Shown in pieces: positions 12,225-16,171 of a DNA stretch of 36,149 nucleotides. Positions within the stretch are counted from its first letter, which is position 1. Every line of letters starts with the position of its first letter. The notes under the pieces were generated by a model that worked only from the letters and a program-made list of their open reading frames with translations, was not told the DNA's origin and did no database searches. Made by a program: the position numbers and the translations under genes. The stretch comes from a virus, in the UHGV virus genome UHGV-0015323; one strand, given 5' to 3'.

Positions 12225-12266
12225 TTCTTACTCCTTTCTTCGTTTGTTTTTTGTTGCTATGTGAAC

Positions 12267-12295
12267 ATTATATGTCGCATAATAGAATTTGTCAA
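12267..12295 (-). promoter_or_regulatory. Early leftward promoter, perfect sigma-A consensus TTGACA-17 nt-TATAAT
   Basis: Minus strand reads TTGACAaattctattatgcgacaTATAAT. The -35 element is at 12290..12295 and the -10 at 12267..12272. Confidence 0.7.
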
Positions 12296-12398: not shown

Positions 12399-12767
12399 AT
12401 GAACGAACGCCTAAAAAAGTTAAGAAAAGAATTGGATATGACTCAACAAGAATTTGCTGAAGGTATTGGAATTAAAAGAAACACCATAGCAACTTACGAG
12501 TCCGGTAGAAATGAACCTATCGATGCAGTTATTTCTCTTATATGTACAAAATATAATGTCAACGAAAATTGGCTCCGTACTGGAGAGGGTGATATGTTTG
12601 TGAAACTGTCCTACTCTGATGAAATTGCACAGTTTGTCGGACAGCTCATGACTGAGGAAGATGATTCTTTTAAAAAGAGACTTGTTTCCGGATTGGCGGC
12701 TCTTGACGAAACTGGATGGAAAGTATTAGAAGACTTTTTGGACTCTATACAAATAAAAAAGGACTGA
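12399..12767 (+). CDS. cI-like phage repressor, XRE-family HTH with C-terminal oligomerisation domain and no S24 peptidase
   Basis: MNERLKKLRKELDMTQQEFAEGIGIKRNTIATYESGRNEP is a canonical HTH_XRE. Only plus-strand gene in this region, divergent from the early operon. Confidence 0.8.
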   Translation: MNERLKKLRKELDMTQQEFAEGIGIKRNTIATYESGRNEPIDAVISLICTKYNVNENWLRTGEGDMFVKLSYSDEIAQFVGQLMTEEDDSFKKRLVSGLAALDETGWKVLEDFLDSIQIKKD

Positions 12768-12768
12768 T

Positions 12769-12870
12769 TTATTTCAGTCCTAAGATTCCGCGAATGAAAA
12801 AATATACATTTTTTAATCGTGTGTCGTCCAATTCGTCAAGCATTTTTATTATGAGTTTTTTATAATTCAT
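12769..12870 (-). CDS. Possible 33-aa peptide (MNYKKLIIKMLDELDDTRLKNVYFFIRGILGLK) convergent with the repressor gene
   Basis: GGAGGG is 7 nt upstream of ATG at 12870. The stop lies 1 nt from the repressor stop. Both 3' ends share the hairpin GGACTGA-tttatt-TCAGTCC at 12761..12780. Confidence 0.3.
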   Translation of the reverse strand: MNYKKLIIKMLDELDDTRLKNVYFFIRGILGLK

Positions 12871-13095
12871 TATGGATCCCTCCGTTCCCAGCAAGAACAC
12901 TCTTCGAAATTCCTTGATTTAATCATACGACATTTGTTTTTATAAATCAATGTTTTTATCGAACATCTGTTCTTTTTCACTTAGGAACTTTAGGGATTGC
13001 TATTATTAGGAAAGCCTGCTCAAATATTTATAGAGTAGGTTCTGATCAGGATTGTGGTGTTCCTGATTGGCAGGCACACAAATGAGGGTAAATTT

Positions 13096-14313
13096 ATGGG
13101 ATTAAGATTTAGAAAAAGTTTCAAGGTTGCTCCTGGAGTAAAAGTAAACTTGAACAAGAAAAGTACAAGTATAACGTTTGGTGGAAAAGGTGTCCACAAA
13201 ACATATAGCTCTTCTGGAAAGAAAACAACATCTGTCGGCATTCCAGGTACCGGCGCATACTACACTACTTCTTCCGGTGGTGGATCTGGTAGTAAAAAAC
13301 CATCCAGTCATAAAAAGATTTCTACAGACAACTTAGATCCAGTCCTTACGGAAGACCTTTCTTTTCAGAATAATGTTGCCGATGGTTCAAGCGCATCACT
13401 TGATAAATTTACAACGGATTCTTTGAAGCGCTATAAAATAACCTCTGCGATACTGTCCGCTTTTCTGTTTTTCGTTGCGCTAATTGGTTTCGCCGGTGGA
13501 AGTGCTTTGGCAACAGTAATTTGTTTAATTTTCGGCGGTATCACACTTGCAATGTCAATCACCTATTCAAAAGAGATTAAAAAACGCCTTTCATCCGAAA
13601 GTAGTTTCGGTTCATCTACATTTTCAGGTACCTCTCCGGATATAGATGATAAGCCATCCAAAAAGAAGATGGGGTGTGGATGCCTTACAGCTGTCATTCT
13701 TTTCTTCCTTGTGATCGGAGCTATTTCATCATGCACCGATTCCGGTGATAAGAATACGGAAAAGAATGTAGAAAAAGTTGAGGACACAAAACCAGTAGTT
13801 GCAGCTCTTGAAAGTTTGAGCATTTCAGCTGATACAGATCAGACTTATGATATTAATACAGAGGTTCCGGTAACACTTACCGTAACACCGGCCGATGCTA
13901 ATATTGATAACCTGACTTTAAATGGATCCGAATGTACCTTTGCTTCTGATGATAACGGAAACCTTACATTTTCAGCAAGCGGAGCTGGTTCTTATATAAT
14001 CACCGTTTCATGTGATGGCATTGAAAGTAATTCCCTGACTTTCAATGTTGAAGACAAGGCTGCTATTGCTGCTGAAGCAGAAGCTGCAGGACAAGCAGGG
14101 CTCGAAGCTCAACAAACTACTGAAGAATCCAATCAATCAGATGTTGTTCAGCAAACACAAGAACCACAAGAAGAAATGGTTTGGATTTCTGCTACTGGTA
14201 GCAAATACCACAGTAGACCAAATTGTGGTCAAATGGATCCGAGTACATCCTGGCAACTTTCTGTTTCTGAAGCTGAGGCACAAGGTTACGAGCCTTGTAA
14301 AAAGTGTCATTAG
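13096..14313 (+). CDS. Accessory (moron) membrane protein. N-terminal DUF4236-like motif, 2 TM helices, an internal lipoprotein-type signal peptide, a bacterial Ig-like domain and a C-terminal Cys/His motif.
   Basis: MGLRFRKSFKVAPGVKVNLNKKSTSITFGG matches the DUF4236 N-terminal signature. KKKMGCGCLTAVILFFLVIGAISSC is a lipobox-like sequence at about aa 205. TLTVTPADANIDNLTLNG...YIITVSCDG is Big-like. C-terminus is GSKYHSRPNCGQM...GYEPCKKCH. Own promoter and RBS GAGGGT, located between int and repressor. Confidence 0.65.
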   Translation: MGLRFRKSFKVAPGVKVNLNKKSTSITFGGKGVHKTYSSSGKKTTSVGIPGTGAYYTTSSGGGSGSKKPSSHKKISTDNLDPVLTEDLSFQNNVADGSSASLDKFTTDSLKRYKITSAILSAFLFFVALIGFAGGSALATVICLIFGGITLAMSITYSKEIKKRLSSESSFGSSTFSGTSPDIDDKPSKKKMGCGCLTAVILFFLVIGAISSCTDSGDKNTEKNVEKVEDTKPVVAALESLSISADTDQTYDINTEVPVTLTVTPADANIDNLTLNGSECTFASDDNGNLTFSASGAGSYIITVSCDGIESNSLTFNVEDKAAIAAEAEAAGQAGLEAQQTTEESNQSDVVQQTQEPQEEMVWISATGSKYHSRPNCGQMDPSTSWQLSVSEAEAQGYEPCKKCH

Positions 14314-14435
14314 TTATTAGATAATTTGACGATTTTCAGATGATATTTTACAGTCATAACAACTAAAATAAAACCGCTCCTGCGCCAACAGGAACGGTCA
14401 ACTGGGGAAGCACACGCCAATGTGCTTTAGTAACT

Positions 14436-14479
14436 CCGAAGAGATACTGTCTTGCCAAAGAATATTGTATCATCTTCGG
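14436..14479. other. Imperfect 44-bp palindrome CCGAAGAGATAC-N20-GTATCATCTTCGG upstream of the integrase start, candidate attP core for the serine integrase
   Basis: Nested inverted repeats CCGAAGA/TCTTCGG and GATAC/GTATC. An additional 9-bp inverted repeat ACAGTCATA/TATGACTGT lies at 14350 and 14512. Confidence 0.3.
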
Positions 14480-14562
14480 CGCAGTCGCACAATCAGAACT
14501 TACGTTCTATGTATGACTGTTATTTTTGTACTTTTTTACATAATATATACGGAGGTGATATC

Positions 14563-16113
14563 ATGTCATATTGTATTTATTTAAGGAAATCGAGAAAGGA
14601 TCTTGAAGCCGAGCAGCATGGTGAAGGGGAAACTCTTGCCAGACACGAACGTGCACTTCTCTCTCTTGCTAAGAAAAACAACCTGATTATTAGCAATATT
14701 TATCGAGAAGTTGTGTCTGGAGAAACTATAGCTGCACGTCCTGTTATGCAACAGTTACTTCACGAGGTAGAGCAAAACCTTTGGGACGGTGTGCTCGTCA
14801 TGGAAGTGGAACGTCTTGCTCGTGGTGATACAATCGATCAGGGAGTTGTACAGAGAGCTTTCCAGTATTCCAACACACTAATCATCACTCCTTCCAAAAC
14901 CTATGATCCGGCCAATGAATTCGATGAAGAGTACTTTGAGTTTGGATTATTCATGAGTCGGCGTGAATATAAGACGATCAAGCGCAGAATGCAGAACGGA
15001 CGTTATGCCGCTATCTCTGAGGGAAAGTGGCCATATAACTCCGCACCATACGGTTTCCGGAGAATGAAACTTGAAAAAGAGAAGGGATGGACTCTTGCTT
15101 TTGATGAAAACGAGGCTCCTGTTGTGCGACTTATCTTTTCTATGTTTACCGGTCCGGAACGTGTCGGTATCCGGTCGATCACTCGTACTTTAAACAGTTA
15201 CGGTACAAAGCCACGTAATTCCAAACTTTGGAGTGAGAGCACCGTCCGTGGAATCCTCTCTAATGTTGTGTACGATCAATGCGTTAAGATCGGCGAACGA
15301 AAAGTGGTCAGAACAGTTGAAAATGGTGTTCTCACAACCGCACGTCCGAGAACCAGTGACTATACCATCGTTTCCGGTCGGCATCCGCGCTTAATCGATC
15401 ACGATGTATTTGCAGAAGCTCAGAGTTATCTTGGCTGTGGATCCCCAAAGCCTGCCGGTTCTAACATTATCAAAAATCCGCTTGCAGGAATCATTGTCTG
15501 TAGTGAGTGCAAAAAGAAAATGATTCGCCGGCCGCCTTCCGGAACTGCCAGTCGTGTTCCTTATGATCTGATGTTGTGCAGTACATATGATTGCCCTACC
15601 ATTGGCAGTCCTTTGGATCTTGTTGAGCGAGAAGTTTATAACGCGCTTTCTGACTGGGTTGAAGGATATCGTCTGAGTGGTCAGATGCCAAGCAAGAGTC
15701 TTATTCCGGAAAAAGAAGTTCTTTTGGAATCAGCTCAACAGACACTCGATCAACTTCTACGGCAAAAGGGAACCATGTATGATCTGCTTGAACAAGGTGT
15801 CTACTCGACAGAAGTCTTTCTTGAGCGATCTGACAGTTTACAAAACCGAATTTCTGAAGCTGAATCAAATGTTGCCCAGCTGAAACTCGAACTTGACAAG
15901 GAACGCCAAAGAGAAGCCAATATAGAACAGTTCCTGCCGGCTTGTGAAGATCTGCTTTCCTGTTATTGGGATTTATCTATTCCGGAACGCAACAGATTGT
16001 TGAAATTACTCATAGAATCTATAGAATACAAGAAATTAACGAAAAATAAGCGCGGTCATCTGAATGAGCCTAACTTTGAATTGACCATAAAACCAAGAAT
16101 CCCGCGCAAATAA
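14563..16113 (+). CDS. int: Large serine recombinase (phage integrase)
   Basis: N-terminal resolvase domain (YLRKSRKD...), recombinase domain, zinc ribbon (CSECKKK...CSTYDC) and C-terminal coiled coil. Start was placed at MSYCIY (GGAGGTG 5 nt upstream) rather than the track's 14452. Confidence 0.85.
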   Translation: MSYCIYLRKSRKDLEAEQHGEGETLARHERALLSLAKKNNLIISNIYREVVSGETIAARPVMQQLLHEVEQNLWDGVLVMEVERLARGDTIDQGVVQRAFQYSNTLIITPSKTYDPANEFDEEYFEFGLFMSRREYKTIKRRMQNGRYAAISEGKWPYNSAPYGFRRMKLEKEKGWTLAFDENEAPVVRLIFSMFTGPERVGIRSITRTLNSYGTKPRNSKLWSESTVRGILSNVVYDQCVKIGERKVVRTVENGVLTTARPRTSDYTIVSGRHPRLIDHDVFAEAQSYLGCGSPKPAGSNIIKNPLAGIIVCSECKKKMIRRPPSGTASRVPYDLMLCSTYDCPTIGSPLDLVEREVYNALSDWVEGYRLSGQMPSKSLIPEKEVLLESAQQTLDQLLRQKGTMYDLLEQGVYSTEVFLERSDSLQNRISEAESNVAQLKLELDKERQREANIEQFLPACEDLLSCYWDLSIPERNRLLKLLIESIEYKKLTKNKRGHLNEPNFELTIKPRIPRK

Positions 16114-16126
16114 AGGGTTTTTTGTT

Positions 16127-16171
16127 ATTTCCAAAAGAAACGGGATTATTCTTTATCCCAATTCTTTTGGA
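16127..16171. other. Perfect 12-bp inverted repeat TTTCCAAAAGAA / TTCTTTTGGAAA with nested GGGAT/ATCCC, 14 nt downstream of the integrase stop. Candidate attP or recombinase binding site.
   Basis: tttccaaaagaaacgggattattctttatcccaattcttttggaaa read directly. No T-run follows, so it is not a typical terminator. Confidence 0.35.

Follow-up and report, generated by a model that had tools for sequence, protein, structure and literature searches.

A DUF4236 membrane protein in the lysogeny module of a human gut prophage as a candidate phage-exclusion protein

What does a temperate phage gain from a large membrane protein encoded between its repressor and its integrase? The question is raised by UHGV virus genome UHGV-0015323, a stretch of 36,149 nucleotides (hereafter the window) which as a whole represents a complete-looking temperate siphovirus genome, and in which a trio of plus-strand genes, encoding an HTH_3 repressor, a protein with an N-terminal DUF4236 domain and a large serine recombinase, is enclosed by two minus-strand blocks. 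The middle gene (13096-14313, plus strand, stop codon included) encodes a 405-aa protein combining DUF4236, transmembrane (TM) segments, an immunoglobulin (Ig)-like domain and a C-terminal ADA_N-like zinc domain. The original prediction, made from the letters of the DNA, had placed an accessory gene with its own ribosome-binding site at this location, and in these points it held: the open reading frame (ORF) runs from an ATG at 13096 to a stop at 14311-14313, a Shine-Dalgarno (SD) motif GAGGG (13084-13088, plus strand) was read from the sequence 7 nt upstream, and the neighbours are a cI-type repressor (HTH_3; 12399-12767, plus strand) on the upstream side and the 516-aa serine integrase (14563-16113, plus strand) on the downstream side. 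Because DUF4236 starts at Met1-Gly2 in practically every relative, ATG 13096 is, judged by these homologues, the true start. Given the position in a lysogeny-module hotspot and the predicted surface exposure of the C-terminal half, the function most reasonably belongs to the class of superinfection exclusion, defence or lysogenic conversion. Overall, we regard the protein as a good candidate for a new phage-exclusion protein; that it is an envelope-acting anti-phage protein of the superinfection-exclusion type is plausible, though we rate it somewhat short of probable.

The defence cargo of the genomic slot provides the strongest, if indirect, argument for a role in phage-phage conflict. Across 80 IMG/VR loci, which form 30 groups at 90% identity, the gene was usually found 1.3-3 kb from the contig end, and the first large downstream ORF was an integrase in 35 of 42 non-redundant viral loci (about 83%), comprising 19 tyrosine and 16 serine recombinases, i.e., two unrelated enzyme families. 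Upstream neighbours were HTH_3-type repressors (48 of 121), ImmA-like Peptidase_M78 proteins (19) and S24 repressors (6), and among species-representative bacterial genomes an integrase was found downstream of 24 of 40 tail-bearing homologues. Furthermore, viral contigs were searched with the integrase of the window and the genes located just upstream were identified. Integrases with 98-100% identity were preceded by the window gene, by a different DUF4236 allele of 347 aa, by a K+-channel-like Ion_trans_2 protein (E=2.6e-17) or by HSDR_N plus a NYN nuclease, and those with 50-65% identity by PD-Lambda-1 (PADLOC, E=1.6e-154), AbiD/Abi_2 (E about 1e-63, three loci), a secreted Big_2 protein or a TPR protein. 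At other loci Uma2, PemK or HicB was located between the DUF4236 gene and the integrase, or the next large gene was Abi_2, SIR2_2 or EC042_2821. Since identical or related integrases are preceded by different cargo, including known defence genes, the slot is a hotspot for variable accessory and defence cargo.

Two other occupants deserve mention in their own right. The K+-channel-like Ion_trans_2 gene replaces the DUF4236 gene at L179 (841-1737) and L180 (2424-3227), beside the integrases of 98-100% identity, and adjoins it at L015 (7294-8055); for a prophage to encode an ion channel within a defence hotspot is of interest by itself. At L208 (2031-3224), an AbiD-like protein (Abi_2, E=8e-31) encoded before a related integrase carries a C-terminal ADA_N-like domain (hhalign probability 98%, E=1e-13), and this match connects the orphan domain with an established intracellular family of abortive-infection proteins.

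A DUF4236 N-terminus had been proposed for the window protein, and the profile search confirmed it at the extreme N-terminus, with PF14020 matching at E=9e-18 and above the gathering score (65 bits, cut-off 27), and with aa 3-57 (13102-13266, plus strand) covering profile positions 1-55 of 55. In the AlphaFold2 model the domain forms six short beta-strands arranged as an up-and-down amphipathic meander, in which hydrophobic residues alternate with basic or polar ones; from the net charge of aa 1-114 it is predicted to be cytoplasmic, and its profile found no match among PDB sequences. An S/G/K-rich linker of low model confidence (aa 61-114) is followed by a membrane helical hairpin (13438-13569, plus strand; aa 115-158) with basic residues flanking both sides. 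This hairpin, too, had been expected, and the expectation agrees with the uncharged hydrophobic run at aa 115-158 and with two confident AlphaFold2 helices at 107-133 and 137-168 (predicted local distance difference test, pLDDT, about 90). A cytoplasmic-looking loop (aa 159-191) terminates in KPSKKK, directly ahead of a third TM helix (aa 192-212).

DUF4236 together with a membrane segment forms the invariant core of the family, even where the ectodomain is missing, and this would suit a membrane-bound abortive-infection (Abi) or sensor-effector system, in which the outside module or DUF4236 senses infection and the hairpin or the oligomerised TM segments depolarise the membrane and abort the infection. 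The one-layer amphipathic beta-meander predicted for DUF4236 would need oligomerisation, and the slot also holds AbiD and PD-Lambda-1, the Abi_2 protein with the same tail domain and, beside an identical integrase, an ion channel as alternative cargo. However, no toxin, enzyme or pore motif is recognisable in the protein, PADLOC gave no match, and the hairpin is optional, as 46 of 110 members have a single TM segment; we consider such a mechanism rather unlikely.

The surface exposure on which an exclusion function would depend was examined by charge and family comparison. Net charge falls from +12 (aa 1-114) through +3 (the loop) to -24 (aa 214-405), and in all 27 viral groups (of 30) in which a TM segment was detected, the last one has a Lys/Arg cluster on its N-terminal side and an acidic or S/T-rich stretch on its C-terminal side. 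In addition, the homologue P0140 places the Ig-plus-tail module behind a classical N-terminal lipoprotein signal peptide. From the charge bias, the flanks of the last TM and this lipoprotein form we infer an N-in/C-out orientation, with DUF4236 and the loops inside and the Ig domain, the stalk and the zinc knob outside. An even number of TM segments would contradict this topology, and a crude count gave one, two and three segments in 46, 43 and 21 of 110 members, respectively. In the "2-TM" class, the first segment (WYQKTGW...PVG...MWK) carries basic residues on both flanks; provisionally, it is probably a re-entrant hairpin, with the last TM still running from inside to outside.

The predicted extracytoplasmic half consists of three parts. 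The Ig-like domain (Big_2 or filamin type; 13807-14055, plus strand; aa 238-320) is modelled by AlphaFold2 as a beta-sandwich with pLDDT >90, and Foldseek matched this model to filamin repeats, Big_2 domains and the C-terminal Ig domains of the tail-tube proteins lambda gpV and T5 pb6. For filamin, Big_2 and the C-terminal Ig domain of lambda gpV (TM-score 0.72 on the target) the Foldseek probability was 1.0, a value obtained for a predicted model, and Pfam returned Big-like matches below threshold only (Invasin_D3, 18.8 bits, cut-off 33). The idea that the domain is a decoy copying the phage's own tail Ig domain was dropped, as the window holds no paralogue. It is followed by an A/E/Q-rich stalk of 40 aa (14056-14175, plus strand; aa 321-360), helical at first and then a disordered Q/E stretch, and by the tail (14176-14310, plus strand; aa 361-405), an ADA_N-like (NCBI "sunset"-type) zinc domain with the predicted ligands H372, C377, C401 and C404. 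An Ig-like domain that ends in a Cys/His motif had been suggested; the Ig-like fold stands, but the tail is a domain of its own, a small separate fold (pLDDT >90) set off from the Ig domain by the 40-aa linker.

The tail could be traced further by profile comparison. The four putative ligands are invariant or nearly so in an alignment of 51 diverse tails, and the profile built from these had a sole match in the PDB, the N-terminal domain of E. coli Ada (E=0.004), on which H372/C377/C401/C404 align with C38/C42/C69/C72, so that the proposed profile search of the C-terminus recovered all four metal-ligand positions; the motif G[FY]xPCK[KR]C is common to both. Pfam Ada_Zn_binding (PF02805) itself remained below its gathering score (17 bits, cut-off 23; E=0.006), and NCBIfam gave a weak match to the "L20, sunset domain variant" model. 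Because one zinc ligand is His throughout the family, it is doubtful that the tail keeps an Ada-like methyl-transfer chemistry, and a retained binding of phosphodiester backbones would be inference only. In a 2025 ECOD paper, ADA_N-like domains were described as mostly C-terminal, found in Gram-positive bacteria and often attached to secreted proteins, with C. difficile Cwp27, the ComEC/Rec2-like protein Q187P0 and M. tuberculosis ArfC among the named carriers (PMC12353581). In a large protein collection, tail-only relatives bear the source names DNA-entry nuclease and MBL-fold hydrolase, and Clostridium phage c-st carries the tail domain on its metallo-beta-lactamase-family protein.

Such an ectodomain might also serve the lysogen outside phage defence, as a lysogenic-conversion surface protein whose Ig domain binds cell-wall or mucosal glycans, or whose knob binds extracellular DNA or teichoic-acid-like phosphodiester polymers, with effects on adhesion, biofilm formation or DNA uptake and competence. 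Big_2-type Ig-like domains are typical carbohydrate or adhesion modules, ADA_N-like tails occur on Cwp27, ComEC-like and DNA-entry-nuclease proteins, and stand-alone lipoprotein versions are found in ordinary chromosomal contexts; moreover, a secreted Big_2 protein is among the alternative cargo and the prophage is very frequent in human gut metagenomes. The tight linkage to two unrelated integrase families in many phages, the defence genes as alternative cargo and the many family members that have no Ig domain at all speak against it, and we hold this explanation to be unlikely, though far from negligible.

A curious feature of the protein is located at its last TM helix. A lipoprotein-like signal in the middle of the ORF had been noticed from the sequence, and the segment KPSKKK-MGCGCLTAVILFFLVIGA-ISSC (13651-13734, plus strand; aa 186-213), which in the predicted topology is an internal signal-anchor, indeed conforms to the Gram-positive pattern. 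Using the lipobox definition [LVI][ASTVI][GAS]C, preceded by a basic n-region and a hydrophobic h-region, the lipobox ISSC (13723-13734, plus strand) ends in Cys213, and K191, 17 uncharged residues and A-I-S-S-C213 match the Gram-positive (G+LPP-type) pattern as an internal segment, with KKK, MGCGCLTAVILFFLVIGA and ISSC in the expected order. TDSGD directly after Cys213 resembles a lipoprotein linker. The signal does not lie at the N-terminus of the translated product, as it begins at aa 186 of 405. The closest clade retains the Cys (as ISSC, MSSC or AGSC, and once as the non-canonical AESC); most of the family lacks it, the corresponding helix there being a simple membrane anchor. Counted over the family, 13 of 111 members have a lipobox where the last TM reaches the outer side, compared with 5.65 expected by shuffling, a modest enrichment. 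It is possible, though less likely than not, that in the clade of the window the ectodomain is lipid-modified and cleaved at Cys213 by Lgt/LspA after insertion, which would separate the surface part from the DUF4236 part.

Internal initiation at Met192, which had been offered as a way of releasing a surface lipoprotein, is unlikely and finds no support. There is no SD motif ahead of Met192, Cys-retaining relatives have no Met at this place (KKKGCGCLT), one close variant carries M192T, and the product would lose the basic n-region and therefore fail the lipoprotein pattern. As a separate observation, much of the family has a conserved motif, K-K-x-G-C-L, where the last TM begins on the cytoplasmic side, with the variants KKKMGCGCLT in the window protein (KMGCGC being aa 191-196, 13666-13683), KKGKGCLT, and GGGCLS in gp43 of phage RG-TP1.

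Another explanation would be an accidental fusion or a decaying ORF with no function of its own. An exhaustive search of representatives yielded 6099 clusters with E<=1e-3, of which 890 reached E<=1e-10, and 110 of the 150 best 50%-identity representatives combine an N-terminal DUF4236, at least one membrane segment and an ADA_N-like tail, with middle regions that consist of an Ig-like domain, S/T-rich stretches or nothing. The halves do exist separately, DUF4236 plus hairpin for example in P0142, P0196 and Roseburia phage Shimadzu orf32, and TM or lipoprotein signal plus Ig plus tail in P0140, P0145 and P0181; the apparent stand-alone C-half P0160 is a frame-shifted split of a full-length gene. 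The suggestion of a fused two-part protein is therefore correct insofar as each half occurs elsewhere, but the architecture is recurrent and conserved and no chance fusion: it is found in full in over 100 divergent clusters, every domain is modelled confidently, and among 115 close variants the folded domains are most conserved and the linkers most variable. The latter indicates, from these variants, purifying selection on the folded domains, without hypervariability of the ectodomain, and by these conservation data the fusion explanation is effectively refuted, leaving it a barely perceptible chance.

The family is spread over hundreds of prophages of Lachnospiraceae, Oscillospiraceae and other Bacillota. 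One homologue (L015/L189, 81% identity overall) is 96% identical over aa 1-320, with the tail swapped for another ADA_N subtype at 33% identity (SSYVVNTSTKKFH...GYSPCGHCHP, compared with window 14176-14310). Since the tail alone is exchanged in a relative of 96% identity, the tip is, on this comparison, a swappable module.

Taken together, an exclusion mechanism can be proposed as follows. The gene would be expressed along with the lysogeny genes and its product inserted N-in/C-out into the cytoplasmic membrane, where the cytoplasm would retain the basic DUF4236 beta-domain together with the loop that follows the hairpin, and the third TM helix would export the acidic C-terminal 190 residues. 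A lysogen would thereby display the Ig-like domain, the helical stalk and a terminal His-Cys3 zinc knob on the outer face of its membrane, and this surface module, situated in the wall zone, might engage the tail tip or the DNA of an incoming phage and block genome entry; on the inner side, DUF4236 and the membrane hairpin would hold the protein in place or bring about its oligomerisation. A bolder version makes the protein a new and very widespread exclusion or defence family of Bacillota prophages, in which an extracellular His-Cys3 knob, descended from a module binding the DNA backbone, would read the phage genome or the tail tip at the membrane and serve as an exchangeable specificity cassette, and in which the precursor of the window clade would be split at the lipobox into a three-TM DUF4236 protein facing the cytoplasm and a free surface lipoprotein. 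To our knowledge, there is no precedent for lipobox splitting of a polytopic bacterial membrane protein, and we judge this version improbable.

Several observations weigh against an exclusion protein acting from the surface. A relationship to Ltp/Sie-type proteins had been suggested, but Pfam, PHROGs and PADLOC place the window protein in no known superinfection-exclusion (Sie), Imm, Abi or PADLOC family, and all significant PHROG matches are of "unknown function". The literature on DUF4236, on ADA_N-like or "sunset" domains and on RG-TP1 reports no functional data, topology or phenotype, and the topology given above derives from hydropathy, charge and AlphaFold2 alone. No arms-race signature was seen in the ectodomain among the 115 close variants, and the ADA_N-like tail is also found on cytoplasmic proteins (the Abi_2 fusion and ribosomal protein fusions), so that the tail by itself implies no surface role. 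Part of the slot's cargo does not look like defence (the ion channel and the secreted Big_2 protein). Finally, DUF4236 with its membrane anchor is the most conserved element of the family and fills the slot without an ectodomain in Shimadzu orf32, which a purely surface-blocking mechanism leaves unexplained.

The gene had been credited with a promoter of its own; the best sigma-70-like match (9/12) overlaps the SD and nothing convincing was found upstream of the gene, so that this claim was not upheld. A scan for promoters and terminators found no plus-strand terminator 3' of the gene either, and as regards an autonomous (moron-type) unit, what separates it from the repressor is a minus-strand hairpin and an antisense ORF. 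Transcription that starts at the repressor promoter may run through into the gene, and perhaps beyond it into int. Upstream of the repressor lies a weaker plus-strand promoter site (12254-12283), overlapped, in the manner of a divergent switch, by a perfect consensus minus-strand promoter for the early genes (TTGACA-17-TATAAT, 12295-12267).

Running in the same direction as repressor and integrase and lacking a clear terminator in between, the gene could also belong to the machinery by which the phage itself decides or enters, namely as a TM sensor for extracellular DNA, envelope damage or other phages that feeds the lysis-lysogeny switch, or as a helper of the phage's own DNA entry or exit. 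The layout of outside domain, TM and inside domain, the adjoining HTH repressor and the ImmA-like peptidases in relatives would agree with such a sensor. Yet the gene is dispensable, as phages with 98-100% identical integrases and the same 128-aa repressor ORF carry other cargo, and DUF4236 has no recognisable signalling or DNA-binding motif; this role seems to us quite improbable.

Additional small elements surround the gene. Between repressor and DUF4236 gene, a conserved 33-aa antisense ORF (12769-12870, minus strand; MNYKKLIIKMLDELDDTRLKNVYFFIRGILGLK) has a strong SD of its own (GGAGGG) and a hairpin at 12760-12781 that is a terminator for the minus strand only and belongs to this ORF; a similar 33-aa ORF, gp44 (MDYKNKIIELINGISNTAKLEYLYYVIRSFLKG), occurs at the equivalent place in the M. 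gnavus phage RG-TP1. Just before the SD of the DUF4236 gene, the 5' leader contains a 7-bp inverted repeat (ATCAGGA ... TCCTGAT, 9-nt loop; 13045-13067), which could be an operator or an mRNA hairpin. On the other side, the gap between the gene and int (14365-14540) is unusually structured (as RNA, z = -6.3 and -5.1 for the minus and plus strands, respectively), including a 12-bp hairpin at 14372-14399 with a T-tail on the minus strand only, and a minus-strand promoter-like site is located at 14569-14540. The gap travels with the integrase and is conserved in L019, where one of its hairpins shows compensatory changes relative to the window (GCACAC/GTGTGC to ACATAC/GTATGT). It has no Rfam match and could act either as a leader of int or as an antisense RNA that controls this gene.

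The remaining genome is that of a siphovirus, with a minus-strand block encoding TerL, portal, HK97-type capsid, tail tube, a 712-aa tape-measure-like protein, a Prophage_tail protein, holin and a GH25 endolysin, and with early genes, also on the minus strand, that include a Rep-like protein, RNase H and PcfJ. At 40.6%, the GC content of the DUF4236 gene differs little from the 42.6% of the window. Rfam and tRNA scans of the window gave no matches, near-identical DNA was not found among deposited phages, and a search of GTDB species genomes for a close copy was negative. Close copies (97-100% identity) are extremely frequent in human gut assemblies, with one exact sequence present on 533 contigs.

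Integrated copies reveal that the prophage splits the sporulation gene cotJC of Mediterraneibacter faecis, a host identified by the name of the flanking CotJB. On the integrase side the serine integrase adjoins a 65-aa Mn_catalase (CotJC) fragment, behind which lie cotJB and cotJA, and at the opposite end the endolysin adjoins a 129-aa CotJC fragment; the interruption is represented by L001 13054-13251 and L178 5223-5612. The window and the integrated form cease to be homologous at about 16151-16162, immediately after GGGATTATTCTT, within the attP core (16140-16165). The interruption of cotJC resembles the skin- or SPbeta-type intervening elements within sporulation genes.

If the family indeed excludes or aborts phages, it would be a very common but unstudied player in phage-phage conflict in the human gut, the orphan domains DUF4236 and ADA_N-like would both gain a first function, and the protein could serve to test how lipoproteins are processed at internal signals. 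Genes of this kind shape the infectivity of therapeutic and resident phages on abundant commensals such as Mediterraneibacter.

Among cultured phages, two of which show the arrangement of the window locus, RG-TP1 of M. gnavus offers a counterpart of both protein and locus. Its gp43 (XPO97308.1, "hypothetical protein") shares with the window protein DUF4236, the hairpin and third TM, the Ig-like domain, the E/A/Q-rich stalk and the ADA_N-like tail, and is encoded in the same order of repressor (gp45), small antisense ORF (gp44), gp43 and serine integrase (gp42), followed by the lysis genes. In contrast to the window protein it has 343 aa and no lipobox Cys past the last TM, and its tail is of a different subtype (VYITNTG-KYH...PCGICHPP). 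Orf32 of Roseburia phage Shimadzu ("hypothetical protein with TM2 domain") likewise combines DUF4236 and a membrane hairpin between an annotated repressor and integrase, but has only 195 aa and neither Ig-like domain nor ADA_N-like tail; going by this protein, DUF4236 plus a membrane anchor shows as the common denominator of the slot. DUF4236 occurs elsewhere, too. In the cultured temperate C. difficile phage phiCD38-2, gp15 (L089 4001-4642) has the same N-terminal domain, but unlike the window protein it continues into a soluble helical C-terminal part with no TM and is encoded between tail-chaperone-like and tape-measure genes; phiCD111 and phiCD146 have a soluble DUF4236 protein at the same tail-module position. 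Because gp15 carries it in a soluble protein of the tail module, DUF4236 is, by domain content, a promiscuous N-terminal module confined neither to lysogeny modules nor to membranes.

Functionally, the nearest known kind is the Ltp/Sie2009 class, which shares the lysogeny-module location with the window gene; lactococcal Sie2009 is located between repressor and integrase. Searches with Pfam, PHROGs, PADLOC and Foldseek revealed no relation in sequence or fold to the window protein. Ltp of Streptococcus thermophilus phage TP-J34 is encoded in the lysogeny module, expressed from the prophage and lipid-anchored on the outer face of the membrane, where it blocks DNA injection (PMC3952083). Its normal N-terminal lipoprotein signal peptide and helical repeat domains differ from the window protein, and it has none of the latter's DUF4236, TM hairpin and zinc tail. 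For the tail, the ADA_N-like or "sunset" domains of ECOD are the closest described group, small C-terminal zinc modules remotely homologous to the Ada N-domain; in the window the module is joined to DUF4236, TM segments and an Ig-like domain in a prophage lysogeny module, a combination unmentioned in PMC12353581. The only solved relative found by profile search, the E. coli Ada N-domain (PDB 1ADN, 1U8B, 1ZGW), differs from it in that the position of Ada Cys38 is an invariant His in the tail family, and in that the window tail is C-terminal, predicted to be extracytoplasmic and not followed by helix-turn-helix or methyltransferase domains. The domains are thus already catalogued (PF14020; ECOD ADA_N-like) and homologues are deposited as hypothetical proteins; what is unusual is the pairing of an inside with an outside domain, together with an internal lipobox, in a common and well-conserved protein within a defence hotspot.

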